From: Chthoniobacteraceae bacterium
GTDB taxonomy: Bacteria > Verrucomicrobiota > Verrucomicrobiia > Chthoniobacterales > Chthoniobacteraceae
NCBI GenBank assembly: GCA_031409655.1
Contig: JANNXQ010000218.1
Span: 1 to 31,010, forward strand
Reading direction: 5' to 3'
Length of the DNA: 31,010 bases
Positions 7,010-28,966 of this stretch are shown here, in pieces (positions within the stretch are counted from its first letter, which is position 1; the number at the start of each line of letters is the position of its first letter). Below the pieces are notes generated by a model. It did no database searches. It was not told the DNA's origin and saw nothing but the letters and a program-made list of their open reading frames with translations. Made by a program: the position numbers and the translations under genes.

Positions 7010-7596
7010 TAAGCTATTGTTTCTCCGCTTGATCCTAGAGCAAACGCAAACCGCTCCGCTGCGAGGAGCGATGAGGCGTTGTCCTCGTAGGATTGGTGGA
7101 CGCGAGTCTGAAGCCGCGGATGCGCTCACTTGGCTGAGTATTGCGCAAGCTGCCGCACGTGGACACCGCAAATAGTGTCCACTCGACTCGGATTTTCACT
7201 GTCAGGTAGTGGCCTATGCCGATGATTTACTTGGGTGAGCTGATGCTCTTGACTGCCAACCACGGTGCTTTTCGTTCCCACTTCCCGTGCAGAGGTTCTG
7301 CAGGGGCTGTGAGACTGAGAGCTCTGTAATTAGCACGTCGGGGACGGGCTGCATAGCACTGTGAATGGGGCGGGCCAAGGGACTGCGGTTAGGGTTATTA
7401 TAGTTAATGCAGGGTCGCGGCAACAAAAAGTCACCTTTTCCTTCGCTGCGAGGGCTCAGAAAACGATAGAACTTGCCGGTCGGGTTTGGGGAGTGCGTTT
7501 TTGGGCTTTGGCGGCTGCGATGTGCATGGCGCAATGGCTGGACGGTTTGTTGACACGGAGCGCGAGCGACCTACGCTGCGCGGAAGCCTGACGACG

Positions 7597-9915: not shown

Positions 9916-9992
9916 GGCAGCGCACCGGCCGGCGCCGCGTCAATTTGGAATGAAAGGTTTGAATCGATGCTTGAAGCGCGCCTCCGAGTGTC

Positions 9993-10010
9993 AGCACACT
10001 AGATGCTTTC
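9993..10010 (+). promoter_or_regulatory. Palindromic AGCA-N7-TGCT motif (sigma54-like spacing), copy 1
   Basis: AGCACACTAGATGCTTTC; the TGCT ends 13 nt before ATG 10021. A near-identical copy has the same spacing before ATG 11026. Confidence 0.5.
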
Positions 10011-10020
10011 ACTTCGCGTC

Positions 10021-10905
10021 ATGCATTCTCCAACAAGGAAGTCGGCCCGTCGGACTCTCGGGAGGACCGCGCGCAAGACGAACGGCACCAAAGCCCGTCC
10101 GACCAGTGCCGCCAAGGCTGGCGCGGCCTCCGGGAACGGCGCTCCCGAAGGTGCGGCCTTGCGCGAGCAGCTCCGATCCCTCTCCGCCCGTCTCCTCGAA
10201 GCCCGCGAACAGGAACGCGCCGCGATCTCGCGCCGCGTCCACGATGAGCTGGGGCAAACGCTAACCGCGCTGCAATGGGATGTCGGCTGGCTCTCCGAGC
10301 GGCTCTGCGGATTGCAGAATGACGCGAACCGCGCGGTCGAAGCGCGCATCGCAGGCATGGCCGCCTCAATCGCGACAGCCTTGGAAACAGTCCACAAAGT
10401 CGCCTGCGAACTGCGCCCACCACTCCTTGACCAATTCGGCCTCGCCATAGCCATGCGCAGCGAAGTGGAGCAATTCCGCACCCGCTACAGCGTGCCTTGC
10501 GAGTTCATCGCGGACCCATCTTCCCGCCCCACAAATCGGTGCGTCGCCACCGCGATCTTCCGCATTTTTCAGGAAATCCTGACCAACATCGTCCGCCACG
10601 CCCAAGCGACCCAGGTGCGCGCCCGACTTTCGGAAGACGCCGACGCTGTACTTCTGGTCGTCAGCGACAATGGCCGCGGGATCACCGCCACTGGCCCGTC
10701 AAAATCATTGGGCATTTTAGGGATGCACGAGCGGGCGTGGTTACTCGGCGGCGAAGTCACGATCCGCACCACCCCCGGCATCGGCACGGCCGTCGAGGTG
10801 CGTGTTCCCCACGCTCAGCAGCTTGAAGATGACGCTCCGGCTCTTGGATTTCCGACGAGAGCACCCGCCATCAGCCAACCGTTGGATCCGGCGGATTTGG
10901 GATAG
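10021..10905 (+). CDS. Sensor-less HisKA_3 histidine kinase, paralog of the upstream kinase core
   Basis: REQLRSLSARLLEAREQERAAISRRVHDELGQTLTAL closely matches the upstream kinase. N-box FRIFQEILTNIVRHA, SDNGRGI and GILGMHERA are present. Only a short basic/Ala-rich tail precedes the kinase core. Confidence 0.88.
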   Translation: MHSPTRKSARRTLGRTARKTNGTKARPTSAAKAGAASGNGAPEGAALREQLRSLSARLLEAREQERAAISRRVHDELGQTLTALQWDVGWLSERLCGLQNDANRAVEARIAGMAASIATALETVHKVACELRPPLLDQFGLAIAMRSEVEQFRTRYSVPCEFIADPSSRPTNRCVATAIFRIFQEILTNIVRHAQATQVRARLSEDADAVLLVVSDNGRGITATGPSKSLGILGMHERAWLLGGEVTIRTTPGIGTAVEVRVPHAQQLEDDAPALGFPTRAPAISQPLDPADLG

Positions 10906-10997
10906 GCAAAAGGTCCCATTGCGGTGATCCTTGGGGCCATGGATAGTTGGACCGCCGCAGGAAACCGCGCTCAATCAAAAAACTCCGCGAACACCCG

Positions 10998-11015
10998 AGC
11001 ACGCTAGCTGCTTTC
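10998..11015 (+). promoter_or_regulatory. Palindromic AGCA-N7-TGCT motif (sigma54-like spacing), copy 2
   Basis: AGCACGCTAGCTGCTTTC; the TGCT ends 13 nt before ATG 11026. Confidence 0.5.
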
Positions 11016-11025
11016 TCATTTCGCG

Positions 11026-11778
11026 ATGCATCGTAAAGCTAAGAAAAAGACAACTCCCGAGGGTGAAGCCATCCCGCCGACGCCCGGGGTTGGACGCACC
11101 GAAGCGCCGGTCGCTGCCGCCGCAGTCGCCAAGTTGCGCATGCTCGTCGTGGACGATCATCCCGTCGTCCGACGCGGCTTGATCCAAACGCTGGCCGAAG
11201 CCTTTCCCGGCGTCCTACTCGGCGAAGCGGCCAATGCCCAGGAGGCTCTCGAGCAAATCTGGAACAACGAATGGGACGTGGTCCTCCTCGATGTGAGCAT
11301 GCCTGGCCGCAGCGGACTGGACGTCCTCAAGGAAGTCCGCCAAGAGCGTCAAAAGCTCCCCGTGCTCGTCCTCAGCATGTATCCCGAGGACGAATTTGCC
11401 CTGCGCGTTTTGCAAAATGGCGCCGCTGGCTACCTCACGAAACAAACCGCCCCGCACGAACTCGTCCTCGCCGTCAAAAAAGTCCTCACCGGAGGCCGCT
11501 ACATCAGCCCCTCGGTCGCCGAGCGCCTCGCCGAGCACCTAAACCGCGACACCGAGAAAGCACCCCATCAACTCCTTTCCGACCGCGAATATCAGGTCAT
11601 GTGCATGCTCGCCGCCGGCAAGACTGTGAAGGAAATCGGCGCGGAACTTTCCCTCAGCATCAAGACCATCAGCACCTACCGCAGCCGGATCCTCGAGAAG
11701 ATGCTCCTCAAGAACAACGCGGAGCTGATGCGCTACGCCGTCGAAAACGAACTGGTGGACTATCGCAAGCCGCGCTAA
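11026..11778 (+). CDS. NarL/UvrY-family response regulator (REC + LuxR HTH)
   Basis: LVVDDHPVVRRGL, phospho-acceptor VLLDVSMPGRSG, GAAGYLTK, and HTH LSDREYQVMCMLAAGKTVKEIGAELSLSIKTISTYRSRILEKM. An alternative start is ATG 11140. Confidence 0.93.
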   Translation: MHRKAKKKTTPEGEAIPPTPGVGRTEAPVAAAAVAKLRMLVVDDHPVVRRGLIQTLAEAFPGVLLGEAANAQEALEQIWNNEWDVVLLDVSMPGRSGLDVLKEVRQERQKLPVLVLSMYPEDEFALRVLQNGAAGYLTKQTAPHELVLAVKKVLTGGRYISPSVAERLAEHLNRDTEKAPHQLLSDREYQVMCMLAAGKTVKEIGAELSLSIKTISTYRSRILEKMLLKNNAELMRYAVENELVDYRKPR

Positions 11779-11811
11779 CCCGCAGTATCCCGCCCGGCAA
11801 CGCGGCGGAGA

Positions 11812-11840
11812 TTGCCTTTCCCGGCGAGCCCGGCTTTCCT
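11812..11840 (+). promoter_or_regulatory. Putative sigma70 promoter of thiE
   Basis: TTGCCT-N17-TTTCCT, ending 10 nt before GTG 11851, the same geometry as the thrS promoter. Confidence 0.35.
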
Positions 11841-11850
11841 CCACGCCCTG

Positions 11851-12498
11851 GTGAAAACTCTCGCCGAATGCCTCCTCTACGGGATCGTCGATCTCGGCTA
11901 CGTCGCTCCTGAAAAAATCGAGCACGCGGCTGTGCAGATGTGCCTCGGTGGCGTGGACATCCTCCAGCTTCGCGCAAAAAATTTCTCCCTCGAAGACGCT
12001 GAGGAATTTGGCCTCCGCCTTGCCCCGATCTGCGAAACCCACCGCATCCCGCTCATCATCAATGATCACCCGGAGATTGTCCCCACCATCGGCGCGGCGG
12101 GCGCGCACGTCGGCCAGGAGGATCGTCCCGTCTCCGACGCCCGCTGGCGCGCCGGTCGCGCCCTCGCCGGCGAAGTGCCGCCCGCGATCATCGGCAAGTC
12201 CACGCACGGCTTCGCCCAGGCCGTCGCCGCGGCCGAGGAAGGTGCGGACTACATCGGCTTTGGCCCACTTTACCCGACGCCGACGAAAGCCGGCCGCACC
12301 GCCATCGGCCTCGCCGACATCCGCCGCGTCCACGAGGCCATGCGCATTCCCATCTTCTGCATCGGCGGCATCAACCGCGAAACCCTCGATGCCGTCCTCG
12401 CCGCTGGCGCGCGCCGCGTCGTCATCGTTTCCGGCATCCTCCGAGCGCCCGACATCGCCGCCTACTGCCGCGACGTGAAGGCCCGCCTGCAAGCGTAG
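11851..12498 (+). CDS. thiE: Thiamine-phosphate synthase
   Basis: LYGIVD, QLRAK, LIINDH, GAHVGQED, IGKSTH, ADYIGFGPLYPTPTK and PIFCIGGI motifs. Confidence 0.95.
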   Translation: MKTLAECLLYGIVDLGYVAPEKIEHAAVQMCLGGVDILQLRAKNFSLEDAEEFGLRLAPICETHRIPLIINDHPEIVPTIGAAGAHVGQEDRPVSDARWRAGRALAGEVPPAIIGKSTHGFAQAVAAAEEGADYIGFGPLYPTPTKAGRTAIGLADIRRVHEAMRIPIFCIGGINRETLDAVLAAGARRVVIVSGILRAPDIAAYCRDVKARLQA

Positions 12499-12550
12499 CG
12501 CGAACGGAGGAAATGGGCGTGCGCACGGTGATTGCTGAACTGCGTTCCCA

Positions 12551-13939
12551 ATGTCGCACGCCCTGACTGCAGCCCCACGGTGGTTCTTCCTCGCGCTGCT
12601 CGTCCTCGCGCCCTGGGCCTACGGCTGCACCGAGCCATGGGCCATCCGCTGGCTCAATGCCGGCCTCGCCCTCGTGCTCCTGCTCTGGGTCGATGGCTGC
12701 ATCCTGCGCGGCGTCTGGCCTGCCGTGCATCGCGCCGCCGCCCTCTGCGTCGCCCTGCTCCTCGCCCAAGGCTGGTGGATGGCCCTGAATCCCCACTTCA
12801 CCCACGACACCGCGACCCACGCCTTCCAAGCCGTCGCGGCGCCGATCCACTGGCTGCCCGGCACCGTGGACGGCGCCATCTCCCGCACCGCGATGCTCCG
12901 ACTCACCGTCCTGCTCGCCATGGTGCTTTTCACGGCGGATCTCTCGGCCTCCGCCATCTGGCGCCGGCGCCTCTGGTGGACCATCGCGCTCACCGGCGTC
13001 TCCATCGCCCTCCTCGGCCTCATCCAGCGCGTCTCCGCCGCACCCATGATTTTCTGGGAGCCGAGCCAGCGCACCGGCACCTTTTTCGCCACCTACTATT
13101 ACGCGGGAAATGCGGGTGCCTTTCTCAATCTCGTGCTCACCCCCGTGGCCGGTCTCGCCCTCCTCGCCATGCGCAATCCCGACGCCCACGCCCTCCGCGC
13201 CCTCTGGCTCCCCGGCTGGCTGCTCTGCCTCGCCGCACTCTTCGTGAACACCTCCCGCACCGCGCAAATCATCGCCTGCGGACTCACTGCCGTCTTCCTC
13301 ATCTCCCAAGCCCGCTCCCTTTCCACCGAACTCCCGCGCCGCTCCATCTGCGCCGTGTATGCCGCCGCGATTCTCGCCGCCATCACTGCCCTCGTCGTCG
13401 TCTCCGGTGCCGAAAGATCCGCCGCCAAGTGGACGATCTTCACGAGCCAGCTCAACCACGAAAACCCGCGCCTGCAAGCCATCCAGACCGCCCTCACGAT
13501 CCTGCCCGATTCCGGCATCTTCGGACTCGGCCCCGGCACCTTCGGAGCCGCCTTCCCGCACTACACCGGCCCCCTCGGCGACGGCATCGCCGGCATCTGG
13601 CGCTACACCCACAACGACTACCTCCAGACCCTCATCGAGTGGGGTCTCGCCGGCGCCATCGTCTGGGCCGTGCTTTTTTTCTGGGGAATGGCGCGTTGCT
13701 TCGCCTGCTGCCGCCCGCCTCCGATGCCGCGCCTCCCGAAGCCCGACGCCCCGCCACGCGCCCGCACCCGCGACCGCCTCGTGCTCTTCTGCGCCGGCCT
13801 CTCCCTTGCCGGCGTCGCCATCCACGCCCTCGTCGATTTCCCCCTCCAGATCGCCTCCCTCCAGCTCTACGTCGCCGTTTTTCTTGGCCTGGGTTGGAGC
13901 TCCGCCGTCTCCCGCGCCGGCTGGCAATCGCAGCCGTAG
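12551..13939 (+). CDS. O-antigen ligase / Wzy_C family membrane protein
   Basis: About 10-12 TM segments with FATYYYAGNAGAFL, NTSRTA, GLGPGTF, YTHNDYLQTLIEWG and HALVDFPLQ motifs. Confidence 0.85.
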   Translation: MSHALTAAPRWFFLALLVLAPWAYGCTEPWAIRWLNAGLALVLLLWVDGCILRGVWPAVHRAAALCVALLLAQGWWMALNPHFTHDTATHAFQAVAAPIHWLPGTVDGAISRTAMLRLTVLLAMVLFTADLSASAIWRRRLWWTIALTGVSIALLGLIQRVSAAPMIFWEPSQRTGTFFATYYYAGNAGAFLNLVLTPVAGLALLAMRNPDAHALRALWLPGWLLCLAALFVNTSRTAQIIACGLTAVFLISQARSLSTELPRRSICAVYAAAILAAITALVVVSGAERSAAKWTIFTSQLNHENPRLQAIQTALTILPDSGIFGLGPGTFGAAFPHYTGPLGDGIAGIWRYTHNDYLQTLIEWGLAGAIVWAVLFFWGMARCFACCRPPPMPRLPKPDAPPRARTRDRLVLFCAGLSLAGVAIHALVDFPLQIASLQLYVAVFLGLGWSSAVSRAGWQSQP

Positions 13940-16100: not shown

Positions 16101-16300
16101 CTGGAGCCCGGGATTGTGTGCGGCGGCCGCGCGTGGTCTAATCCGAGCTGATTCTCAGCGTTGGTCGGCGAAAACTGCGGGGCCTTCACGGCTCCCGTGT
16201 GGTGAAGTGGGCGCAGCAATCTTCGTGGCCCATGGATGTTTTCGAGCCTCGCGCTCCGCGTCGCTTCACGCCTTGCTCAAAACCTCACCACGCCCTCGCC

Positions 16301-18568
16301 ATGCCCACGCCTTTCCTCTCCCGCATCGAACCGCTCGAAGCCCGCATCGCCCCCGCCGCCGTCTTCACCTACATCGACGTGGATGGCGACCTCGTCACGA
16401 TCAAGACGAGCAAGGGGAACAACAACCAGCTTGCGGATATCGTCGTGCCGTTCCTCTCCTCCGAGGGCGTGCCCAATGGACAGGAGTTGCAGCAGATCGA
16501 TTTCAGTATGAATGCGGCGGTCTTCAAGGGGACGGATCTCAGTGTGACCGCCGTGCGCTCGAACGGCGCCGGGGATGGCCGGGTGAACGTCGGCTACATC
16601 GATGCGACCAGCCCGGACGATGGTGCAAGCCTCGATCTCGGGAATGTGAAGATCAGCGGTGATCTCGGGCGCATCGTGGCGGGCGACGACACGGCGACGA
16701 CGCCGGGCGTGAAGTCGCTCACGGTCGGCTCGGTCGGGCGCTACGGCACGGACACGCAGGCGGGCGGCGGAAATCTCAACAGCACCATCACCGGTGCGCT
16801 GCCGTCGCTCGTGGTGAAGGGCGACTTCGCCGACGGCTCGCTCATCGTCTCGAATGGAATGACTCCAGGGGCCGGCAAGATTGGCAGCATCGCGATCGGC
16901 GGTTCGCTGATCGGCGGCGCGACGGCGGTGACCGGCTATATTTCCGCCGCAGGCGGCATCGCGAAGGTGAACATCGCGCACGATTTGCAGGGCGGGATCG
17001 GGAGCAGTTCCGGGCAGATTTTCACCGGTGCAAAACTCGGCAGCGTCACCATCGGCGGCTCCCTGATCGGCGGCGCGGGCTTCCACTCCGGGCGCTTGCA
17101 GGCGGGCAGCATCGGCACCGTTTTGATCAAAGGAAGCCTCGTGGGTGGTTCGCAGGGATCGGTGATGATGGACGATGCGACCGGCTCGATTGAAAGTGCG
17201 GGCTCGATCGGCAGTGTGACCATCGGCGGTTCCATTCTCGGCGGGAACGATCCCGCTTCGGCGACCATCAGGGCCGTCAACGGCAGCATCACGAACTTGA
17301 CCGTGGGTGGCGACATCATCGGCCGCGGAGCGCGCAGCGCGGCCGTGACGGCGCTCATCCTCCTTCAGAATGTCACCGTCCACGGTTCCATCGTCGGCGG
17401 CTTCCAGGCTCCCGATAGCGCGGAGATTCGCGGCGGGACTATCGGGAAGATCGTCATCGGCGGCGATTTGCAGGGTGGCGTGAATTCTCCTCAGTCGGGT
17501 TACATCGACGGGGTAAATTCGATCACGAGTATCACGATCGGCGGCTCCGTGATCGGGGGTATCGCCACGAATCTCGCCGACGGTGGTAATGCAGGTCAGG
17601 GTAGCGGTGCCATCTACGGGTTTAACATTGGCAGCGTCTTGGTAAAGGGAGACCTGGTCGGGAAAAGCGGACGTTCGAGCGGCACGATCTTCGCGTCGAA
17701 TCGCCTCGATCAGGTATCGATCGGCGGCTCCGTGATCGGTGGCGATGGCGAAGTCACCGGGGGTATCCAGACCGCCGGCAGCATCGGCTCGGTCAAGATC
17801 GGCGGTGATCTCCGCGGAGGCGAAACCCAGGGCTTCAACATCAATAGGAGTGGCTTTATCACCTCCCTCGGCGCGATCGGGAATATCACGATCGGCGGCT
17901 CGGTCGTCGCCGGCGCGGCGGTGGGTGGGAACAGCGTGCAGAGCAGCGGCATCATTGCGGTCGGAGATGACCTCGGCTCGCTGGTGGTCAAAGGCAGCCT
18001 CGTCGGAAACTCCACCAACTACGTCTCCATCGTCGCGCGCGGAAAAGGCGGCGCCTTCACTGGTCCGGACCTGGCCATCAAGAGCATCACCATCGGCGGA
18101 CGCGTGGAAAACACCAACATCCTCGCCGGCTACAGCGAAAGCGCCCGCGGGCTGAATGCCGACGCGCAGATCGGCTCGGTGAGCGTGGGTGGCGATTGGA
18201 TCGCGAGCAGCATTCTCGCTGGCATCAATCCCTTCACCGACGGGAAGATCGGCACGGCCGACGACCGCGAACTCCTCGGCGGCGAAGACTTCGGCTCCGG
18301 CCCGGTGAAGGACAGCAACGCGCTCACTTCCAAAATCGCGAGCATCGTGATCAAAGGCGGGGTCTTCGGCACGCCCGGCCTTACCACCGACACCTTCGGC
18401 TTCGGCGCGCAGGAGATCGTTTCCTTCAAGATCGGCAGCGTCACGCTCCCGCTCAAACCAGGCGTCGCGAATGACGTCTTCGCCACGAGCAAAGCTCAGC
18501 CCATCGCCGCGGGCCGATCCAGCGCCAACACCGGAGACGGCTTCGAGATCCACGTGTTCGAAGTGTAG
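16301..18568 (+). CDS. Large Gly-rich beta-solenoid-like repeat protein with N-terminal IEPLEARIAPA motif, probably extracellular
   Basis: Leader IEPLEARIAPA resembles the LEPRxLL motif of PVC-group extracellular proteins and is followed by YIDVDGD. There are more than 10 repeats of the type IGSVxIGGSxxGG. Codon usage is GC3-rich and typical of coding sequence. Confidence 0.75.
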   Translation: MPTPFLSRIEPLEARIAPAAVFTYIDVDGDLVTIKTSKGNNNQLADIVVPFLSSEGVPNGQELQQIDFSMNAAVFKGTDLSVTAVRSNGAGDGRVNVGYIDATSPDDGASLDLGNVKISGDLGRIVAGDDTATTPGVKSLTVGSVGRYGTDTQAGGGNLNSTITGALPSLVVKGDFADGSLIVSNGMTPGAGKIGSIAIGGSLIGGATAVTGYISAAGGIAKVNIAHDLQGGIGSSSGQIFTGAKLGSVTIGGSLIGGAGFHSGRLQAGSIGTVLIKGSLVGGSQGSVMMDDATGSIESAGSIGSVTIGGSILGGNDPASATIRAVNGSITNLTVGGDIIGRGARSAAVTALILLQNVTVHGSIVGGFQAPDSAEIRGGTIGKIVIGGDLQGGVNSPQSGYIDGVNSITSITIGGSVIGGIATNLADGGNAGQGSGAIYGFNIGSVLVKGDLVGKSGRSSGTIFASNRLDQVSIGGSVIGGDGEVTGGIQTAGSIGSVKIGGDLRGGETQGFNINRSGFITSLGAIGNITIGGSVVAGAAVGGNSVQSSGIIAVGDDLGSLVVKGSLVGNSTNYVSIVARGKGGAFTGPDLAIKSITIGGRVENTNILAGYSESARGLNADAQIGSVSVGGDWIASSILAGINPFTDGKIGTADDRELLGGEDFGSGPVKDSNALTSKIASIVIKGGVFGTPGLTTDTFGFGAQEIVSFKIGSVTLPLKPGVANDVFATSKAQPIAAGRSSANTGDGFEIHVFEV
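18168..18568 (+). repeat. Direct repeat copy A (~400 bp; C-terminal domain coding region)
   Basis: Aligns with 20162-20550 and includes a 71-bp identical block (18341-18411 = 20335-20405). Confidence 0.9.
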
Positions 18569-18632
18569 CGCCGCACTCGAGGTCCTTTCCACCACCGCCC
18601 GCATCCACCAACCGCACCCACCGACTGAATCT

Positions 18633-19925
18633 ATGATCGAACTACTCGAACCCCGCATCGCCCCCGCCAACCTCATCGCCACCGTGGTGGCACACACGCT
18701 TTTCGTCACCGGCTCCGCCGACGCCGACTCGCTCATCATCGACGCTGTGGCGGGCGATGCGACGAAGTTTGTGCTCACCCCGGGCGGCGTCGGCGGGACC
18801 GTCAATGGCGGCGCGAACTTCACCACCTCGACCGGCGTGACGGACATCGTCATCAAGCTGCTCGATGGCGACGACTCGCTGACCTTCAACAACGCCGTCG
18901 GCGGCATCTACGTGAAGGGCAGCGTCTTCGTCGATGGCGGCAATGGCGCCAATGCACTCGATGCGCGCGATCTCACCGTGGAGAAAAACTTCACCATCAA
19001 GAACGGCAAAAACCCCATCGGCACAGATACAACCAACCTAGTAAACACCAGCGTGCTCGGTGCGCTCGCCATCGCCAATGGCGACGGAGACACGCAGACG
19101 ATGCTCTCTCGCGCCTCCGCCGGCAGCTCCACCATCCGCGGCAACGTGAGCATCGTGAATGGGACCGGCGCCGACGAGACCGTGCTGCGCGACATGAACG
19201 TGGGCGGCAATGTGACCGTGGCCAACGGACATGGGGGCGGCTCCACGAATTTCTTCAATATGTTCAACACCGCGACGCGCTCACTCATCCGGGGAAACGT
19301 CGTCGTGAGCTACGCGGACGGCACGGTGAACTCCGACGGCTTGTGGGATGTGGAGGTGTTCGGCAACGTGGCGCTCAAGCACGGCGCCGGTGCGGCCACC
19401 ACGCACTTTGACAGCCGCGGCACGTCGCTGCCGCCGCTCATCCACGGCAGTCTCACTATCACCGGCACGGGCACGGCGACGATCGACGTGGGGGCGGTCG
19501 GCACCGGCGGCGGCCTCATCGTCGAGCGCAATCTCACGATCTCCTCCGGCGCGGGAAATGACGTGTTCACCTTTCGCAATCTGCACATGGGCGGCGCCAC
19601 CAAGCTCGCGCAGGGCGGCGGCAACGACACCGTGAACATCGACGACTCGACCTTCACCGGCGCCTTCGCGCTCGCCACTGGCAAGGGCAATGACGGGCTG
19701 AACCTCGAGAGGCTCGCCGGCACCGCCGCGCCGACAATCTTCGCCGCGCCGGTGTCCGTCAATCTGGGCACGGGCGCCGATAACTTCAGCCGCACCGGTC
19801 TCGCGGACGCCAACCTATTGCTCATCGTCTATCGCACCTTCGTCGTGAAATACAGCGGGGGCTACTCGTCGGCTTTCTCTCCCTCGCGCGACGTGTTCCC
19901 CTTCGGCGGCCGCCTCAGCGGTTGA
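18633..19925 (+). CDS. Gly/Asn/Thr-rich beta-strand repeat protein with N-terminal IELLEPRIAPA motif, probably extracellular
   Basis: Starts MIELLEPRIAPA and contains RTX-like GxGND turns (GAGNDVF, GGGNDTV, GKGNDGL, GTGADNF). Confidence 0.72.
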   Translation: MIELLEPRIAPANLIATVVAHTLFVTGSADADSLIIDAVAGDATKFVLTPGGVGGTVNGGANFTTSTGVTDIVIKLLDGDDSLTFNNAVGGIYVKGSVFVDGGNGANALDARDLTVEKNFTIKNGKNPIGTDTTNLVNTSVLGALAIANGDGDTQTMLSRASAGSSTIRGNVSIVNGTGADETVLRDMNVGGNVTVANGHGGGSTNFFNMFNTATRSLIRGNVVVSYADGTVNSDGLWDVEVFGNVALKHGAGAATTHFDSRGTSLPPLIHGSLTITGTGTATIDVGAVGTGGGLIVERNLTISSGAGNDVFTFRNLHMGGATKLAQGGGNDTVNIDDSTFTGAFALATGKGNDGLNLERLAGTAAPTIFAAPVSVNLGTGADNFSRTGLADANLLLIVYRTFVVKYSGGYSSAFSPSRDVFPFGGRLSG

Positions 19926-19977
19926 TCCCGAAGTTGACGGCGCTAAATCGCGCACGCTCCAAAATCTCGCAAAGCGC

Positions 19978-20550
19978 GTGGACGCGGTGCATTCTTGCGG
20001 CACGCTGCTTACTTACACCGACATCGACGGCGATTTCATCCACGTAGCCGTCACCCATGCAAAAATGGCCACGGGCGATTTCGATTTCGGCGCCGACGGA
20101 TTTCTCTCCGGCGACACCACGACGCTGCAGACGCTCGGCAAGATATCACTCTCGCGGGGCGAGATCGGCGCGGTGAGCGTAGGCGGCGACTGGATCGCGA
20201 GCAATCTGCTCGCCGGCATCAATGCCTTCACTGACGGAAAGATCGCCACTGCCGGCGACCGCGAACTGCTCGGCGGCGAAGACTCCGGCTCCGGTCCGGT
20301 GAAGGATAACAACGCGCTCACTTCCAAGATCGCCAGCATCGTGATCAAAGGCGGGGTCTTCGGCACGCCCGGCCTTACCACCGACACCTTCGGCTTCGGC
20401 GCGCAAGAGATCGTTTCCTTCAAGCTCGGCAACGTCACGCTGCCGCTCAAGGCAGGGGTCGCGAACGACGTTTTCACCACGAGCAAAGCTCAGCCCATCG
20501 GCGCGGGCCTCACCGGGGACGGCTTTGAGATTCACGTGTTCGAAGTTTAG
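19978..20550 (+). pseudogene. Internally deleted remnant or mini-paralog of the 16301-18568 protein
   Basis: Retains an N-terminal-like YTDIDGD segment joined almost directly to the C-terminal domain (IGAVSVGGDWIAS...DGFEIHVFEV). It lacks the LE[AP]RIAPA leader and the central repeats, and has only a GTG start. Confidence 0.6.
20162..20550 (+). repeat. Direct repeat copy B
   Basis: Aligns with 18168-18568; differences are mostly at third codon positions in the part compared by eye. Confidence 0.9.
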
Positions 20551-20589: not shown

Positions 20590-22122
20590 TCAGAGTTGGA
20601 AGTCGATCCAGAGCGGGTCCGGCGTCACCGACTTTTTCAAGGCGGCGCGCTCGGCCGGTTTGAGTTTGGGGAGCTGGTCGATGTCGGGGTTGGTGTAGTC
20701 CTCGCCGGTCCCCCGATACTCCACGGTGAACCAGAGCCGGCCCTTGGTTTTGTCGCGCAGCCGTTCGACGAGTGACGGCAGCGGGATGCGGTCCCAACCG
20801 TTATCCAAGGCCATCTGGTGGCTCACGGGGACGACGGCGATGAGGTCCTGGCGGGTCATCATTTCGAGACCGAGCTCGCGCAGCGTCGCGTTGTGACTGC
20901 CATGGTGGCCGACTTTGTAGAAAGCGGTGCGCGCGAGTAGATCGCGCGCGGTGATCGGCGCGCCGCCCGCCCCACGACCAGCCCACGAGTTCGTGGCGTC
21001 GTGCCACGAGAGCCAGTTACCGACCTGCGCGTCGCCGGGGAAAAGCAGCACGCGGCCATCGGGTAGCTCGAAGGCGAGGACGAGGCTGGTGTTATTCGTC
21101 GCCGCGTCCAGGCGGAGGGCGATGGCACCGCCGGCAAAGAGCCAGTCGTCGTCGATCCTGCGCCAGTCTTCGCTCGCGGCATCGTAGTGCTCCGCGAGGA
21201 GTTTCGCGGACGCAGAAGTCTGCTCCGCGCGCAGGATTTTCAGATCCTGCCGGTGCGTATGCTCAAAGGGTTTCCCGACCTCGGAGAGATCCCGAAAGCG
21301 CGCTTGCGCTTCGTCGCCAACATCGAGAGCGGCGAGCAGGCTGTCCTCGAGACTCAGGCCGTAGAAGAGCTCATAGACTTCGCTGTGGACGGTGCTCGGC
21401 GTGGACTTGCGAATCTTCGCGCGGTCATGCGGCGGGCCGAGGACATAGACCCGCACGCCATCGACCCCCGGCAGTTCCAGGAGCGCGCCCGGCCGGTGAA
21501 AGTGCGGCGTCGCACCCGCAAACCCGGATCGCACGAAGTCCATCGCCTCATTGATCGAACCCGGCTTTGCCGGATCGTCCGCACCGAGGAAGCCGAGCGC
21601 GGAATCGAGCTGCCGCAATGCGGCCGTGCCCGCGGCGGAAAGCCCGCGCAGCCCGGCGAGGCGGGCGTGCAGATGGCGCACGGCGTTCTCCGTCTTCTGT
21701 TTCTGTTTGCGCAGGTCGTTGGCGAGTTCGTCGGACTCGTCCTCGGTCCACGCCAGCCAGACGTGGCGAACGTTCAGCCCATCTTTGAAAAGGTCGCGGG
21801 CCTGGGTGAAACCGGAGAGGTGATCCCAATGCTCGTGGGTGGCGACGAGCACGTCGAGGGTGCCGCGCGTCTTCACCGCGCCGCCGGCATCCAGCGAGCC
21901 GCCGGTCTCGCGGATGATGTCCGCGGCGATCGCGCGCATCTTGTCCGAATTCGGCTTCCCCTTGGGCCAGACGCCACAGTCGATGAGCACATGACACGGC
22001 TGGCGCTGTTTGGTGGTGAAGCTGAGCAAAAAGCAATCGCCCAGTCCCTGGCGATAGCAGCGGATGCGGACCGCGCTCTTCCTGGCGCGGCGGGGAGTGG
22101 CTCGGGCAGCGGGGCGGGGCAT
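20590..22122 (-). CDS. Metallo-beta-lactamase-fold hydrolase, ComEC/Rec2-like (putative nuclease)
   Basis: GLGDCFLL, LIDCG, THEHWDH (HxHxDH), NNTSLVL, LFPGDAQ and KVGHHGSHNAT motifs; no signal peptide or TM segment. Confidence 0.85.
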   Translation of the reverse strand: MPRPAARATPRRARKSAVRIRCYRQGLGDCFLLSFTTKQRQPCHVLIDCGVWPKGKPNSDKMRAIAADIIRETGGSLDAGGAVKTRGTLDVLVATHEHWDHLSGFTQARDLFKDGLNVRHVWLAWTEDESDELANDLRKQKQKTENAVRHLHARLAGLRGLSAAGTAALRQLDSALGFLGADDPAKPGSINEAMDFVRSGFAGATPHFHRPGALLELPGVDGVRVYVLGPPHDRAKIRKSTPSTVHSEVYELFYGLSLEDSLLAALDVGDEAQARFRDLSEVGKPFEHTHRQDLKILRAEQTSASAKLLAEHYDAASEDWRRIDDDWLFAGGAIALRLDAATNNTSLVLAFELPDGRVLLFPGDAQVGNWLSWHDATNSWAGRGAGGAPITARDLLARTAFYKVGHHGSHNATLRELGLEMMTRQDLIAVVPVSHQMALDNGWDRIPLPSLVERLRDKTKGRLWFTVEYRGTGEDYTNPDIDQLPKLKPAERAALKKSVTPDPLWIDFQL

Positions 22123-22136
22123 GGGGTTCTCCTGGG

Positions 22137-24059
22137 CTAATGTTCGTGGCCGCGATGCAGCATCGCAAAGGGCTCGGCGGCTTCCGCGTCCGCGCCGAAA
22201 TACGCAGCGGCCAGCGAGGCTTTCCCCGCACCCGCGAGGTATTCCCGCTGCCGCGCGAGGCGTCGCTCGGCGGAGGCGCCGGAGATCGGCTTGCGGATGG
22301 CGTAGCGCACGCGCCGCGTATCGAGGTCGATGAGCAGCGTGCAGCCACCGCGGAATTTCATCGGGTTGCCGTCGTTGTCCTTGAGGTCGCGCGTCTGGAT
22401 GAGCGAGAGCAGCACCTGATTGATGACGTCGCCATCGGGCCCCACGCGCTCGATCGCCGCAAGCGCGGCCACTTGAAAGCGCGGTACCTTTTCGCGATCG
22501 AGCCGCAAGCCGGAGACCTTTGCCTGTACTTCAAATTTCAAGCCGGTGAGACTTTCCAACCCCGGCACATCTTCCCAGTGACGCAGGATCTTGTCGTGGA
22601 TCTGCTGCCGCCAGTCGCGCAGAACGCCGAACAATTCCTCGCGCTCTTTCACGTAGCGGGCCTGCTCGACCAAACCGCGGATCCGCTCGGCGAGCGCCTC
22701 AATCGCTCCCTCGACCTCAGCGGCCTGGGCGGCATCCTTCGTCAGCGCATCGGGCGACGCCCAGCGCAGACTTTCCTCGGAGAGCGTCCGCACATCGCGC
22801 GGATACAGGCCGCGGCGGCGGAAGGCCTCGATGAAGGCGACGCGGTAGCCATAGTGGTCGTCGCGGACGAGGTCGGCGTCGGCGGTGATGATGGCACGCA
22901 GATAATCGCCAAAGGTGATCTCAACCGGCGGGCAGTAGTCGAGCGCGCGCACGCACATCGCGAGGACGTGCGACGCGGCTTTCGAGGCCTCGCCCGCGAG
23001 ACGCTTGACGAGATCGGGGTGGAGATTGCCGGCAGCGAGCACACCCGTGCCGCCGCTCGCGATCCGCAGCAGATCGGCGGTGCGTTTCTCATAGATGGCG
23101 AGGAAGGCATCGAAAACCGCGGCGACGAGGAGCGCGCCGCGCTCGTGCGGTTCGGTCTTCGTTTCGTAAGCGCGCGGGTCAGGCTTGATGGGGCGCCAGA
23201 CACCGTCCTCCACGTGCCCGATGGCGCTGCGCAGTGCGCCGTAGCCGCCGACGGCGCGGCCAAATTGCACGGCTAACTCCCCGAGCAGGCTCGGCCCGCG
23301 CAGGTCGCCGCGAGTGCGCGCGATCTGATGCTGGAGCACCTCGGGAAAGCTGAAGTGCTGGAAGAGCGCGACGATGTCGGAAAAGGCTTCGTGAAAGGCG
23401 CGCACGTCGGGATGATTCGGCTCGAGGTAGCGCCGGTGCAGGCTGTCGAGGAGCGCGTGGGTGGTCTCGTGCGCGATGATGTCGTGCGAGAGACAGGAGA
23501 AAACCATGCCGCCGGGAAAGTGCTCGCCCTCGTCATTCGCCGGCGCCGGGAAGTAACCAAAGAGCAGCGCTACTTTCTCCGGCGAGTAGTAGGCATTCGC
23601 CTCGCGCAGCGCGTGCGGATAGATGCGCAGCCGCCGCACGAAGCGCTCCTTCTCGCTCGAAGGCGCGTCCTCTCTTCCGCGCCCGCGTTCCCTTTCTGCC
23701 CAGAGGATCGTCCGGCCGAGCGCGCGCTGGAAATGGCGGATCGTGGTCATCGCCACCGCATAGACCATCTGCTGGTGAAAGCGCGGATCGCCCTCGGAAG
23801 GCGGCAGCCCATCCTGCGCGAGCACGTAGGGATCGTTGAGATTGATCGGCGCATAAAAGCACCCGCTCGGCGGATCGATGTCCACGACTTCGACCAGCTC
23901 ACCCACCGGCCCCGGAGCCACGTCTTCCCAAGGCACGCGGAAGGTCACCTGATTCACCACCGCCGTCTCGAGCTGCGTGGAGAGGCTGGGATCGAAGGCG
24001 TAACCGCGCAACCGGCGGAAGGGCGGCGCATCGGGCGAGAGTTGTTTTTGGAGAAACAT
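22137..24059 (-). CDS. Cytoplasmic gluzincin metallopeptidase (thermolysin M4/M36-like)
   Basis: NAYYSP, DIIAHETTHAL (HExxH), AFHEAFSDI (third zinc ligand ExxxD) and EPHERG parallel the thermolysin motifs. No signal peptide. A purine-rich GAGGAAAGG lies upstream of ATG 24059. Confidence 0.82.
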   Translation of the reverse strand: MFLQKQLSPDAPPFRRLRGYAFDPSLSTQLETAVVNQVTFRVPWEDVAPGPVGELVEVVDIDPPSGCFYAPINLNDPYVLAQDGLPPSEGDPRFHQQMVYAVAMTTIRHFQRALGRTILWAERERGRGREDAPSSEKERFVRRLRIYPHALREANAYYSPEKVALLFGYFPAPANDEGEHFPGGMVFSCLSHDIIAHETTHALLDSLHRRYLEPNHPDVRAFHEAFSDIVALFQHFSFPEVLQHQIARTRGDLRGPSLLGELAVQFGRAVGGYGALRSAIGHVEDGVWRPIKPDPRAYETKTEPHERGALLVAAVFDAFLAIYEKRTADLLRIASGGTGVLAAGNLHPDLVKRLAGEASKAASHVLAMCVRALDYCPPVEITFGDYLRAIITADADLVRDDHYGYRVAFIEAFRRRGLYPRDVRTLSEESLRWASPDALTKDAAQAAEVEGAIEALAERIRGLVEQARYVKEREELFGVLRDWRQQIHDKILRHWEDVPGLESLTGLKFEVQAKVSGLRLDREKVPRFQVAALAAIERVGPDGDVINQVLLSLIQTRDLKDNDGNPMKFRGGCTLLIDLDTRRVRYAIRKPISGASAERRLARQREYLAGAGKASLAAAYFGADAEAAEPFAMLHRGHEH

Positions 24060-24075
24060 CGGGGCCTTTCCTCGC

Positions 24076-25212
24076 TCAGGCGGCAAAGCCTTTGAAATGT
24101 TCGCTGCGGACCTTCTTTGCCACCGCGCGCCCGACTTCCTGCATCTCGGCAATGTGCTCCACGGAATCCATCTGTTGCACGTGCTCAGGTTTGATTTTCT
24201 TCAAGCCGAGCGCGTCGAGTCCCTCGCGCGAAAGCTCGGCGTTGTAGCGGGCATATCTAAAGAGCTTTGGCACGTCCTTGATCCCCTGCCCGATCACATC
24301 CCCCACCTCGCGATCGAGCACGTCGCCCACCACGCAATCGCCGAAGACCCGGCAGAGGAAATCCTGCTCGTTCAAGGCGGCACCCATGAGGGCCGACGGG
24401 ATGGTGCCGGCATTGTAGAGGAGATGCATTTCCTCCGGACTAAGGTTGGAGTTGGCATTGGCACTCGCTCCGGTCCCGACGGAGACGATCAGCATCTTCG
24501 CCGCGCCGGTCTCCCAGCAAAGTCGATAGGGTTCGCTCGTGGCCATGAGGAAAAGTTGAAACGCCGGGTTGTTAAACATCGTCACGCCGCCATCGACGAA
24601 GACAAAGTCCTTCGCCTTCGACGTCGCCGATGCCGGTATATGAATCTCCTCCGGCGGGAAATAAGTGGGTGCTGCCGTGCTCGCGCGAATCAGTTGCCAG
24701 AGCTTCAGCTCGGTATTGCGGCCCGTCGCTCCGGGCAGGTTGTATTTTGCCTGGGGATTGTTTGAGAGCGGCCAGGGCGAATCAGTCGTTGCATTGCGCA
24801 GCACGAGCATCAGCAGCGTGCGGAGCTTTTCGGACCCAAACAAGGTGTCCTCGCCGATGATCTTCTTGAGCATGGCGGCCAGCTTATCGGCCCGGAACTT
24901 AGTCCTGAATCGCTCCCACAGGCGGGCCTTCTCAAACATCTCCGCGCCGCTCGCCACATAGAAAGTGCGGATCGCGTCCACACTGAGACCTAATGAAACC
25001 AGCGCCGCGATGATGGCTCCGGTGCTAGTCCCGGCAACGTAGTCAAAGTAATCGGCCAGGACGAGTTTCGGCTTCTTACTCTGCGCCCGGAGATCCGCTT
25101 CGATTTTAGCCAGAATCTCCACGGCGATAATCCCCCGGATCCCACCGCCGTCGCAGGCGAGAAGTTTCCGCGGTCCGGTTTTGGCGAGTTTGTCTTTGTA
25201 AGTTGCGGGCAT
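24076..25212 (-). CDS. Patatin-like phospholipase
   Basis: DGGGIRG oxyanion motif, GTSTG nucleophile, ASTAAPTYFPP and catalytic FVDGG. Confidence 0.93.
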   Translation of the reverse strand: MPATYKDKLAKTGPRKLLACDGGGIRGIIAVEILAKIEADLRAQSKKPKLVLADYFDYVAGTSTGAIIAALVSLGLSVDAIRTFYVASGAEMFEKARLWERFRTKFRADKLAAMLKKIIGEDTLFGSEKLRTLLMLVLRNATTDSPWPLSNNPQAKYNLPGATGRNTELKLWQLIRASTAAPTYFPPEEIHIPASATSKAKDFVFVDGGVTMFNNPAFQLFLMATSEPYRLCWETGAAKMLIVSVGTGASANANSNLSPEEMHLLYNAGTIPSALMGAALNEQDFLCRVFGDCVVGDVLDREVGDVIGQGIKDVPKLFRYARYNAELSREGLDALGLKKIKPEHVQQMDSVEHIAEMQEVGRAVAKKVRSEHFKGFAA

Positions 25213-25279
25213 GGCTGGTGGAGTTGGGATGGTTGACTGAAAATGATCCGGGCAGTTGGCGGGGCGTCGTAAGACGGCT

Positions 25280-27346
25280 TCAGGCGAGTTTCGTCGGATT
25301 GATCACCTCGACCATGCCGCCGAGCTTGCGCACGCGGGATTCAAAATCCGAGGTGCCTCCAGGGCCGTCGCCCGTGGGTTTTTCGTCCCACACGAGCAGG
25401 GCGTGAATCTTCGCGCTGTCAGCGGCTTCGACCCGCGCGGTGTTGATCATCCAGAGATTGGTCCGCGCATAGATGGAGACTTCGTCCGGCGCCTTGCCGA
25501 GGCGCTCAGGCTGGGTCGCGATCTGCGCCCCTTCCCGCAGGGTGTGGAAACGGCGCACCCAGTCATTCCCCGCGCGGGCCACGGAGTCGCAGACGAAATC
25601 GGCAACGTCCTGCGCGAGCAGCAGCCGGACGGTGGCACCGCGCTTCTGGCATTCCTCGGCGAAGAGCAGATCCGCTCCGCAGGCACCACCGCAGACGGCG
25701 AGATCTCCGGCGCCGATGCCCCATTGATCGACGACGCGGGCCATGGCCGCACGCACGGTTTCCGCCTTGGCCTCGGGAAAGCGCGGCGTCGCTCGATCTG
25801 GCGCATCGATCATGTGGCCACTGCAAATGGCGATCCTGTCGAAACGCGCCGTCGGGTGCGGCAGCTCGGCGAGTCTTTGCTGGAGGAGGGTGACCACGGG
25901 CTCCACGGCCTCCGAACGATAACCGAGCAATTGCAGGAGCTGCACTTGCTCAAACATGGAGCGGATGTTGAACCACGTGAGATTCGGGTCAGCGAGGACC
26001 TGTTCGTATTCCGCCAGCGCCTCCTCCCGACGCCCCTCCAGAAGATGCAACTCACCCAGGGTCGCCCGCGCCCAGACGCCTTCCGCCTCGTCCTCGAGCT
26101 TCGCCTGCGCGGCGAGGCGCACGACGGTCTTGAGGTCGTCAAGGTCCGGGACTTCGGGCTTCGGGGTGCGTTTACTTTCTCGGCCAACGTGATCGAGCAG
26201 CATGGCCAGGGCGACCACATTGATCGCCGTGTAATAGCTGCGCAGATCGTGACGCACCGCGACCTCGTAGGTCGTGAGGGATTTTCTGCCCAGGGCCGCG
26301 TTTTTCCAGGCGAGCGCGAGACGGTCTTCGAGCGTCGCTCCACCGCTCCACGCCATCCGCCACAGGTCCTTATAGACGCGGCCGAGCAGGCCCTGAGCTT
26401 CGGCATCTCCCGGCCTCATCTTCGCCAGATCGGTAAGCTTCCGCTCCGCCTCCTTCAAGCGCCCGAGCCGGTTCGCGAGGAGAGCGAGCTGGCACTTGAC
26501 CCGGAACTCGTCCACCGAATCGCTCCCAATCAGGTCCGCATCGAGCTCCCGAAAAATCGGCTCGGCCTGCGTGAATCGTCCAAGCGCGACGAGGGCGTCG
26601 CCACATTGGCGGAGCAAATGGCGGCGGCAGTAGGGCGATGGGGCATCGCCAGCGAGCGTCAGGATGTCCTCGGTGCGCCCTTCCTTGCCGGCGATGCTCA
26701 CGCGCTGGTTCCAGTCTTCCGCCAGCGCCCGGTAGTGCTTGAAGCGCGCGGTGGCGATGCGGCTCGCGTCGGGCGGCACGAGATTCGGCAGATTGCTGTA
26801 CACCGGGCTGCCTTCCGTCGTGCGGTCGGCGGCCACCGCTGCGCGCAAAATCGCCCCGAGCCGCACGGCTTCCGCCCGGACCTGCTCCCGCCAGTCGCTG
26901 CCGCGATCGAGGCCGACGCGGAAGAGCTTTCCGTCATACTTGAAAGTGCGCATCGGGGCGACGTCGAACGGCCGATCGGACCAGCCCGCATGCAGGCAGA
27001 TCACACCGCGAGGTCCTATCGCGTGCCGAATGCCGAGTTCGTAAAAGACGTTTGCGTTCAGGATCGAAATGTCAGCGAGGACGAAATCAGCGGTGACGAG
27101 TTCGGCAAACATGTCCTTGAGAATGTCGCCGGCCGTCGCTTCTTCATCTGCCCGGAAAGGCTGCAAGCCAGCAGCCTCGAGCGCGGGCTTGAAGAGGTCC
27201 CGGTAAACGGAGTCAAAATCGACCTGCAGCTTCTCGTCTCCAGCATCCGTTGCCTGATCAATGCGCGGCCTTTTCGGCACCTCCTTTTTCCCAAAAGGCA
27301 TGACGACAAAAACCCGACGCCTGAATGCAGCGACTTCCCAAGGCAT
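25280..27346 (-). CDS. Nucleoside deoxyribosyltransferase/deoxyribohydrolase-like + TPR (DUF4071/TPR-S-like) + SLOG-like domain protein
   Basis: N-terminal FVVMPFG...FRADEE...VLADISILNANVFYELGIRHA; central TPRs (DAEAQGLLGRVYKDLW, SYYTAINVVAL, WARATLGELHLL); C-terminal SLOG-type SGHMID...RFP, GGACGADLLFAE, RTNLWM and VWDEKPTGDGPGGT. ATG 27346 is supported by an upstream promoter-like element. Confidence 0.78.
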   Translation of the reverse strand: MPWEVAAFRRRVFVVMPFGKKEVPKRPRIDQATDAGDEKLQVDFDSVYRDLFKPALEAAGLQPFRADEEATAGDILKDMFAELVTADFVLADISILNANVFYELGIRHAIGPRGVICLHAGWSDRPFDVAPMRTFKYDGKLFRVGLDRGSDWREQVRAEAVRLGAILRAAVAADRTTEGSPVYSNLPNLVPPDASRIATARFKHYRALAEDWNQRVSIAGKEGRTEDILTLAGDAPSPYCRRHLLRQCGDALVALGRFTQAEPIFRELDADLIGSDSVDEFRVKCQLALLANRLGRLKEAERKLTDLAKMRPGDAEAQGLLGRVYKDLWRMAWSGGATLEDRLALAWKNAALGRKSLTTYEVAVRHDLRSYYTAINVVALAMLLDHVGRESKRTPKPEVPDLDDLKTVVRLAAQAKLEDEAEGVWARATLGELHLLEGRREEALAEYEQVLADPNLTWFNIRSMFEQVQLLQLLGYRSEAVEPVVTLLQQRLAELPHPTARFDRIAICSGHMIDAPDRATPRFPEAKAETVRAAMARVVDQWGIGAGDLAVCGGACGADLLFAEECQKRGATVRLLLAQDVADFVCDSVARAGNDWVRRFHTLREGAQIATQPERLGKAPDEVSIYARTNLWMINTARVEAADSAKIHALLVWDEKPTGDGPGGTSDFESRVRKLGGMVEVINPTKLA

Positions 27347-28139: not shown

Positions 28140-28415
28140 ATGAAAGTGAACGCCGAACCCGGCAGCGAATTCCAGCCGCTGATGGATGCCATCTTTCGGG
28201 AGAAGGTGCTCCGCGCGCGCCGGCAATCTCCCGAGGAGCGCTTCGTGACCGGCTTGGATATGTTTGAGGAAGGCATGGCCTGGATGCGCGATGGCGTGCG
28301 GATGGAACACCCGGACCTTTCCCCGGAAGAAGTGGACGCGCGCGTGGCGCAACGATTCGCCCGCATCCGCCAAATTCAGGAACACGGAATCTATCGTCCG
28401 GTGCCCGCGCCATGA
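28140..28415 (+). CDS. Small helical hypothetical protein, putative partner/antitoxin of the downstream nucleotidyltransferase
   Basis: 91-aa ORF (RARRQSPEERF...GVRMEHPDLSPEEV) whose stop overlaps the next start (ATGA). CTGCCA-N17-TAGCGT lies just upstream. Confidence 0.6.
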   Translation: MKVNAEPGSEFQPLMDAIFREKVLRARRQSPEERFVTGLDMFEEGMAWMRDGVRMEHPDLSPEEVDARVAQRFARIRQIQEHGIYRPVPAP

Positions 28416-28966
28416 ATTCGCGGGAGGCGGTCTGTGCGACGCTCAAGGCTCTGGCCGAAGCCGGGATCCCGCACATGCTGACGGGAGGCCTTGCGGTGAA
28501 CCTCTACACGCTTCCGCGGTTCACCAAAGACGCCGACATCGTCATCCAGATGGAGTCGGCTGCGTTCGATGACTTCGTGCGCCGCCTGCCCGCGGAGATC
28601 CATCTTGATCCGCAGATTACGTTCGAGACGATTACCGGATCGCGCCGGCATATCCTCATGCTCGAACGGAGCGAGTTTCGTATTGAGCTATTTCTGCTCG
28701 GCGACGATCCACACCACCGTGAACGTTTCTCCAGACGGCGGCAGCGCCAATTGCCGGACCTCGGCGTCGAGACCTGGGTGGCCGCGCCCGAAGACATGAT
28801 CGTCCAAAAGCTGCGCTGGAATCGGGAGCAGGATCGCATGGACGCGAAGAACATCATTGGCGTGCAGGGCAACGATCTCGACTGGCCCTACATCGAGTGC
28901 TGGTGCGACGTGCACGGCACCCGCGCGCGGCTCGAAGAAATTCGCGCGTCCATTCCGCCGATCTAG
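28412..28966 (+). CDS. Pol-beta-superfamily nucleotidyltransferase (DUF6036/AbiEii-like)
   Basis: [12 protein letters not shown] (GG motif), [11 protein letters not shown] (DxD), and C-terminal [10 protein letters not shown]...REQDRMDA. Confidence 0.75.

Follow-up and report, generated by a model that had tools for sequence, protein, structure and literature searches.

Two gene pairs placed back to back in a Chthoniobacteraceae genome: a TPR-S/patatin module and a candidate metalloprotease-gated nuclease

We analyze a block of four genes in a 31,010-bp stretch of DNA from a Chthoniobacteraceae bacterium (assembly GCA_031409655.1), hereafter the window, which spans the whole of contig JANNXQ010000218.1, and we find that the four-gene set is not a conserved system: it is a one-off arrangement, most likely of two separately travelling, putatively anti-phage gene pairs set back to back. 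Our preferred interpretation, which we consider reasonably probable, is that the block is put together, mosaic-like, from two defense cassettes that move independently, in which pair A, encoding a TPR-S/SLOG protein and a patatin, would be a nicotinamide adenine dinucleotide (NAD) signaling module and pair B, encoding a zinc protease and a hydrolase of the metallo-beta-lactamase (MBL) fold, a metalloprotease-gated pro-nuclease. A first-pass annotation had proposed a single four-part pathway; its domain calls and its reading of the genes as putatively anti-phage hold, whereas the single pathway does not, since the genes do not recur together and the co-occurrence test put forward with that proposal mostly failed. 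The block comprises the following features, the genes being open reading frames (ORFs) and the junction read from the sequence:

25280 to 27346, minus strand: pair A gene 1 (gene 1), TPR-S/SLOG protein, 688 amino acids (aa)
24076 to 25212, minus strand: pair A gene 2 (gene 2), patatin-like phospholipase, 378 aa
24060 to 24075, minus strand: 16-bp junction separating pair A from pair B, with a purine-rich run resembling a ribosome-binding site
22137 to 24059, minus strand: pair B gene 1 (gene 3), zinc protease, 640 aa
20590 to 22122, minus strand: pair B gene 2 (gene 4), ComEC-like MBL-fold hydrolase, 510 aa

Genomic neighborhoods separate the two pairs. We sampled 102 protease loci (the 80 top-ranked among 586 genome loci, 13 loci from the host family and nine plasmid loci) and 93 TPR-S loci (the 80 top-ranked among 91 metagenome loci and 13 from the host family). 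Pair B occurs in none of the 93 TPR-S loci, where neither a protease nor an MBL was found in any of the 80 metagenome or 13 host-family loci, and the TPR-S protein occurs in one of the 102 pair B loci (1/80 genome, 0/13 host-family and 0/9 plasmid loci). That locus (L064, positions 5127-13650, Planctomycetaceae), in which a SLATT gene and a patatin-TPR-S fusion lie divergent from a protease-MBL pair about 1.5 kb apart, is the sole other neighborhood of the two pairs that we found. Among 150 genomes of the host family, many of them incomplete, the protease is found in 13 and a TPR-S/SLOG match in 12; a single genome carries both, on different contigs, against about 1.0 expected by chance. The closest pair B orthologues (75% and 74%, one of them from the same genus) have other neighbors and no pair A nearby, and a full-length TPR-S orthologue was not found in either genome. 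Likeness at the DNA level to these two cassettes (G496 and G446) sets in exactly at the start codon of the protease and breaks off exactly at the stop codon of the MBL.

The protease and the MBL of pair B are, in turn, near-constant companions. An MBL is present in 77 of the 80 genome loci, directly adjacent in 76 and at 4.3 kb in one, and the three loci lacking it end inside the protease at contig ends; it is also present in all nine plasmid loci viewed. Pairwise distances in the two families correlate (rho 0.72 over 73 rows, with 0/500 permutations as high), a correlation to which host relatedness contributes. The predicted protease-MBL complex scores 0.75, whereas the highest-scoring of three controls has 0.00; in rough counts on our own alignments, 116 of the 157 solved complexes reach that mark, as do 2 of the 215 mismatched pairs; at least 64% of contacts recur between prediction runs, with partner predicted local distance difference test (pLDDT) values of at least 82. 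In the modelled interface, the N-terminal domain of the protease (residues 49-187) grips MBL residues 258-333 in the second of two insertions, engaging the conserved PF and WRRIDxDW motifs, and the protease is predicted on this model to bind the MBL through that insertion.

Gene 3 is a cytoplasmic gluzincin whose modelled structure has the thermolysin/fungalysin fold. It carries the motifs NAYY (155), HETTH (197), HEAFSD (223) and EPHERG (303), with H197, E198, H201, E224 and H305 as predicted zinc and catalytic residues. Its model (pLDDT 84) has M36 and M4 proteases as best Foldseek matches (E 3e-4 to 6e-4, probability 1.0), its profile aligns onto the zinc ligands of thermolysin, and HExxH is kept in 72 of 72 protease rows. 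The likeness to thermolysin (M4) and fungalysin (M36) covers the fold, HExxH with its downstream Glu, the NAY strand and the distal His; unlike these enzymes, gene 3 has no recognized signal peptide or propeptide (modelled strands start at residue 14), shows 10-14% identity and bears an extra C-terminal alpha/beta domain, at about residues 440-615, that matches no Pfam or other known family. The protease itself matches no Pfam, PADLOC or NCBIfam model, none of its 43 aligned relatives does so at a meaningful E-value, and a PDB sequence search with the protease alone gave no match; relatives nevertheless number at least 8000 sequence clusters. An N-terminal S8 domain is added in 7 of the 80 relatives. 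The 120 best long relatives, ranked in a way that favors tandem copies, comprise 118 double and two triple tandem copies, the first copy lacking the full zinc motif in 51 of the 120 by pattern search, and one long relative (P0283) has an extra N-terminal STAND-type ATPase fusion. Separately, a relative of the protease is encoded in two unannotated records from phage collections (MT836994.1 4681-5883 and LR756511.1 539341-539841), and viral sequences make up 88% of one Atlas cluster of M4/M36-like proteins.

Gene 4 has the motifs HEHWDH (96), GDAQ (363) and GHHGS (405), its residues H98, D100, H101, D364, H406 and H407 are invariant in an alignment of 52 relatives, and HxHxDH is kept in 71 of 72 MBL rows. 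Its model (pLDDT 87) finds its best fold match in the beta-lactamase-like domain of ComEC (9ic4, E 2.6e-9), the phosphorylcholine esterase Pce/CbpE being also among the matches (E 3.3e-4), and the model and alignment together place two large insertions at about residues 130-200 and 235-340. Members of the family match the PADLOC models LmuA (52/52), RTasMBL (47/52) and Avs1a (30/52), gene 4 itself scoring far under the cut-offs of the Avs1a and 6A-MBL models; the comparison with VcMBL was a visual one of motif order. Gene 4 is predicted to be a gated deoxyribonuclease (DNase).

The closest known systems are those in which the MBL is reported to be a zymogen that becomes a Zn-dependent DNase once a trypsin- or caspase-class protease cuts two linkers (PMC12642450; PMC12799240; 10.1101/2025.09.03.673762). 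Such protease-gated modules are described in Avs1a-, Avs2- and Avs4-MBL, HamMAB, Lamassu- and DRT-linked MBL and Canu (PMC12799240; PMC12642450; 10.1101/2025.09.03.673762), and PMC12642450 reports MBL-protease pairs plugged into many sensors. Pair B shares with them a ComEC-like MBL with intact metal ligands and, in its model and alignment, two insertions, an adjacent, co-diverging and catalytically intact protease, placement in defense islands and family matches to the LmuA, RTasMBL and Avs1a models. It differs in that its protease is a zinc enzyme of thermolysin/fungalysin fold rather than a trypsin, caspase or S8 protease, in the lack of a fused sensor here and in the greater length of its MBL (510 aa). 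By this comparison pair B most likely works as protease-gated MBL nucleases do, with a protease outside the classes that define them. Thermolysin or metalloproteases were absent from the main texts of PMC12642450, 10.1101/2025.09.03.673762 and PMC12799240 and from one supplement of the last; PMC12799240 does mention, for one of its figures, nucleases alongside 'other diverse' protease families, and because 7 of the 80 protease relatives carry an N-terminal S8 domain, this family and the 'S8 clade 3' of PMC12642450 may partly coincide. Literature searches aimed at the four-part combination located no description of it.

We envisage, with somewhat more confidence than doubt for this protease-gated-nuclease part taken by itself, that the cytoplasmic zinc protease would dock on the second insertion of the MBL and, once triggered during infection, would cut its gating linker or linkers, with cuts predicted near MBL residues 178-192 and 238-257, whereupon the MBL would become a Zn-dependent DNase and the cell would be killed or arrested, as with trypsin- and caspase-paired MBLs. 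The likeliest switch for the protease would be its C-terminal domain or dimerization. Of everything the first-pass annotation had suggested, the release of a nuclease by a proteolytic switch has the most support, cleavage and DNase activity being its putative steps. Published precedent exists for the mechanisms of both pairs (PMC12642450; PMC12799240; 10.1101/2023.05.26.542521; 10.64898/2025.12.03.692087).

The neighborhoods of pair B are consistent with a defensive role. Complete 6A-MBL systems stand beside it in 5 of the 80 loci, in two phyla, a count from an NCBIfam scan of 81 hand-chosen proteins rather than from an unbiased enrichment test. Protease matches fall on 63 plasmid records, and eight of the nine plasmid loci viewed (from the top 20 plasmid matches) have defense-type neighbors (CBASS-, Hachiman-, DarTG-, SIR2- or ThiF/JAB-type), as judged from annotations. 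On one Rhizobium plasmid (L235, NZ_CP048285.1 9378-29225), a patatin-protease-MBL cassette has a type III CBASS-like operon together with DarTG-like genes on one side and a Hachiman-like pair on the other. A separate observation is that peptidoglycan hydrolases (GH19, GH46, M15 and amidases), amidase-caspase fusions, tyrosinase and LodA are recurrent neighbors of the protease gene across a set of loci (L019, L026, L054, L187, L190, L193, L023 and L194). A role as secretion-system cargo was set aside, as no structural family of type VI secretion or contractile injection systems was found among 109 and 137 scanned neighbors.

Turning to pair A, we divide gene 1 into three regions:

About residues 9-190, with Glu103: N-terminal deoxyribohydrolase-like domain (invariant motif and weak profiles)
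About residues 230-490: TPR-S repeat region (Pfam)
About residues 500-688: C-terminal SLOG-like domain (Atlas look-alikes)

The protein carries the motifs YELG (102), SGHM (509) and GGACGAD (553). Its N-terminal domain holds the sequence NVFYELGxRH, invariant across the alignment of 53 relatives, which we take to be the catalytic helix of the deoxyribohydrolase/TIR class; the domain has no Pfam match of its own and a weak match to a PADLOC TIR effector (E 5.7e-4), and a related fragment matches PF05014 weakly (E 3.8e-4). The Pfam TPR-S family (PF20308) matches gene 1 at E 2.9e-13 (50.7 bits vs a cut-off of 27.6) and all 53 aligned relatives, 22 of which also match the ASK1-type MAP3K_TRAF_bd family; a structure-database search with the TPR-S profile returned generic TPRs only. 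For the C-terminal domain, Atlas look-alikes of the DUF1273/YpsA-SLOG type (0.94/0.85) provide a lead only, with no SLOG match in Pfam. Gene 2 bears the motifs DGGGIRG (21), GTSTG (61) and DGG (207) and matches Pfam Patatin at E 5.8e-24. CapV structures from type I CBASS match it at E 5e-16, sharing the patatin fold and catalytic motifs, yet a plant patatin matches it as well as CapV does, the operon contains no CD-NTase and gene 2 scores 111.8 bits against the CBASS_lipase model, below its cut-off of 200.

TPR-S conflict systems were reportedly defined by Burroughs and Aravind in 2020 (J Bacteriol). A patatin is present in 50 of the 80 metagenome TPR-S loci, adjacent and co-oriented in 34, and 9 of the 30 loci without one had room for a patatin gene. 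A SLATT (DUF4231) homologue occurs in 19 of the 80 and, with a small home-made profile, a TIR-like match in eight. In one genome of the host family (L224, G514:C46, 260-8010), a co-oriented operon of TIR, nSTAND1/RDD, TPR-S, SLATT (DUF4231) and patatin genes is a fuller form of pair A. At another locus (L201, 7916-9859), a TPR-S protein with a SLOG-like region is fused to an adenylate/guanylate cyclase domain.

Among described proteins, BcTpr is reported in a preprint to be a NADase making an isomer of cyclic ADP-ribose (cADPR), and the same preprint lists patatin-Tpr and YpsA(SLOG)-Tpr assemblies (10.1101/2023.05.26.542521). Gene 1 shares with TPR-S systems and with BcTir/BcTpr, as presented there, a putative N-terminal glycosidase-like domain and a TPR-S core; it differs in its putative C-terminal SLOG fusion, in having patatin as a separate gene and in lacking a TIR partner in the locus. 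In type VII and VIII Thoeris, TIR-made cADPR is reported to activate SLATT (ThsH, type VII) and hydrolase-TPR effectors (ThsI, a CMP-hydrolase with TPR, type VIII) (10.64898/2025.12.03.692087). The likeness of gene 1 to ThsI, as reported there, is one of architecture (putative hydrolase plus TPR), and TIR and SLATT genes accompany close relatives of gene 1; the window differs in having neither gene and in its additional SLOG-like domain and patatin. The best reading of this copy of pair A is that of a reduced member of a predicted and partly characterized class, a reduced NAD-signaling module. The first-pass view of gene 1 as a self-sufficient sensor is tentative: its closest relatives carry TIR, STAND and SLATT genes, and the similar type VIII Thoeris protein is reported to be a signal-activated effector (10.64898/2025.12.03.692087).

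The host genome has eight TIR_2 matches over cut-off, all on other contigs, and no SLATT gene was found in it with a home-made profile. Since the window copy lacks TIR and SLATT genes, and the genome has TIR_2 elsewhere and no SLATT match, gene 1 may produce a signal itself, may answer to one in trans or may be a remnant in decay. Mechanistically, its N-terminal hydrolase would cleave NAD+ or another nucleotide, gated by a ligand of ADP-ribose type read by TPR-S or SLOG, and gene 1 would work with a membrane-attacking patatin; given the missing TIR, STAND and SLATT genes, the signal would be self-made or made elsewhere in the genome.

The patatin is also where the two pairs might meet. A lipase lies directly adjacent to the protease in 17 of the 80 genome loci (13 upstream co-oriented patatins, one divergent patatin and Tle1/DUF2235 in four, one of which coincides with the divergent-patatin locus) and in 3 of 13 host-family loci, and within one gene of pair B in 7 of the 9 plasmid loci. 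In a quick tree that kept about half of the TPR-S-linked metagenome rows and no partial matches, the patatins adjacent to pair B span at least three separate clades; with Tle1 added, these point to repeated recruitment of lipases by pair B. The host genome has just four patatin loci in 6.85 Mb, and recurrence of lipases beside pair B by chance is unlikely. The layout of the window can accordingly be read as pair A's patatin having fallen into pair B's upstream lipase slot, and its place in that slot leaves a small probability of a functional link between the pairs. Such a link could take the form of a shared lipase: pair B would often be a three-gene unit of lipase, protease and MBL, and the TPR-S-linked patatin, captured into the slot, would serve both modules, for example by being processed by the protease or by giving rise to a lipid or membrane cue that activates the protease. 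The recurrence of lipases from several clades speaks for this, as do the gap of 10 bp between patatin and protease on the Rhizobium plasmid, akin to the 16 bp here, and the protease-activated alpha/beta-hydrolase zymogens reported in PMC12642450. However, neither a patatin nor Tle1 is directly adjacent in 63 of the 80 loci or in the two closest orthologues, G446 showing just a weak alpha/beta-hydrolase match, downstream; the patatin of the window belongs to the clade otherwise tied to TPR-S (SH-aLRT support 100 in the quick tree), far from those accompanying pair B elsewhere; and no patatin-protease fusion occurs among the 120 best long matches, a list dominated by tandem copies. On balance we find a shared lipase rather unlikely.

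A pathway of four steps, with the TPR-S protein as the infection sensor and its nucleotide signal turning on the patatin and the protease-MBL switch alike, fares worse and is improbable. The operon-like spacing of the genes, the second and independent neighborhood in L064 and the prospect that pair A supplies a sensor for a pair B that here has no recognizable one are in keeping with it, but TPR-S proteins accompany pair B less often than 6A-MBL systems do, the two pairs co-occur across genomes at the level of chance and no nucleotide-binding domain was recognized in the protease. We find it equally hard to credit that pair B is not anti-phage at all and forms a cytoplasmic hydrolase cassette for lipid or phosphodiester turnover or stress-induced autolysis with an MBL akin to Pce: the Pce/CbpE fold match, neighbors that include lipases, peptidoglycan hydrolases, S8/C14/C1/C25 proteases, tyrosinase and LodA, and the many housekeeping contexts of chromosomal copies fit such a role, yet ComEC leads the fold matches by a wide margin, all 52 MBLs match defense-MBL models, distribution is patchy (13/150 family genomes) and copies occur on 63 plasmid records and beside CBASS, Hachiman, DarTG and SIR2 genes.

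Several observations weigh against reading the block as two independent defense cassettes. The flanks of the block within the window carry no defense genes (Pfam scan), and the second and third neighbors of pair B that were Pfam-scanned (137 of 228 picked) are mostly housekeeping or unassigned, so that chromosomal copies often lie outside obvious islands. In the modelled complex, neither HExxH nor the zinc-ligand residues are listed in the interface, which thus depicts docking with no bond positioned for cutting. Four distant host-family homologues of the protease (29-39%) have no recognized MBL partner, and the copy in the window lacks an attached sensor. Many metagenome TPR-S loci are short or near-duplicates, and past the patatin 29 of 50 reach at least 600 bp and only 16 of 50 at least 2 kb. 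Finally, given the tight 16-bp junction and the recurrence of the lipase slot, the pairs may be coupled.

The layout of the block is as first annotated, with gaps of 67, 16 and 14 bp in gene order 1 to 4 and flanking genes on the plus strand on either side, and the four genes are probably co-transcribed here. The catalytic motifs noted earlier are present, and their key residues are invariant among aligned relatives of the TPR-S protein (n=53), protease (n=43) and MBL (n=52), the patatin motifs having been read from the window sequence. Signal peptides were not recognized in the four proteins, as judged by Kyte-Doolittle hydropathy and not by a dedicated predictor (maximal 19-residue means in the first 40 residues of 0.58, 1.49, 0.26 and 0.48 for genes 1 to 4), and the peak of 1.49 in the patatin is its first strand and glycine loop. 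The start of gene 1 at 27346 is backed by homologues aligning from residue 1; the database call begins 15 residues later. The earlier statement that cyclase, STAND and canonical TIR genes are missing agrees with the lack of TIR, STAND and CD-NTase family matches in 24 scanned window ORFs, and the PADLOC check proposed with it, run together with NCBIfam, yields single-domain matches only, the NCBIfam ones under cut-off. All four genes are single-copy in the 6.85-Mb genome (tblastn), and guanine-cytosine (GC) content is 59% in the patatin vs 64-66% in the other three. No promoter-like site was found for the block, terminator-like matches were uninformative and no flanking mobile-element repeats were found.

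Elsewhere in the window, a 91-aa ORF overlaps the start of a 184-aa nucleotidyltransferase with weak DUF6036/AbiEii matches (28140-28966); the two resemble a toxin-antitoxin pair and lie about 1 kb away from the block, with no cyclase family match. A plus-strand run of Gly/Thr/Asn-rich ORFs without a Pfam family (16199-20550) has short repeated matches scattered through genomes of the same genus. An exosortase, polysaccharide-export and Wzc-kinase locus (115-7171), with a GC content of 48-54% vs 63% for the genome, was probably acquired laterally.

Protease-gated MBL nucleases constitute a newly established and widespread defense logic that has been described so far with serine and cysteine proteases; if our reading of pair B is true, it adds a new protease class, the zinc metalloproteases, to protease-gated bacterial defenses. 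With no Pfam, PADLOC or NCBIfam model for its protease, the family would escape current defense annotation, and its copies on plasmids of cultured bacteria, together with the predicted docking surface, make it directly testable. The repeated recruitment of unrelated lipases suggests a third component. More speculatively, and with little confidence, an NAD-signal-controlled TPR-S/patatin module may have captured the lipase slot, wiring second-messenger signaling to a metalloprotease death switch; a fully wired version, similarly doubtful, would also take the protease family as a fourth activator class in a self-standing anti-phage system of lipase, protease and nuclease with an interchangeable lipase. 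The four-gene arrangement is useful mainly as a natural test of the wiring between separate defense modules.

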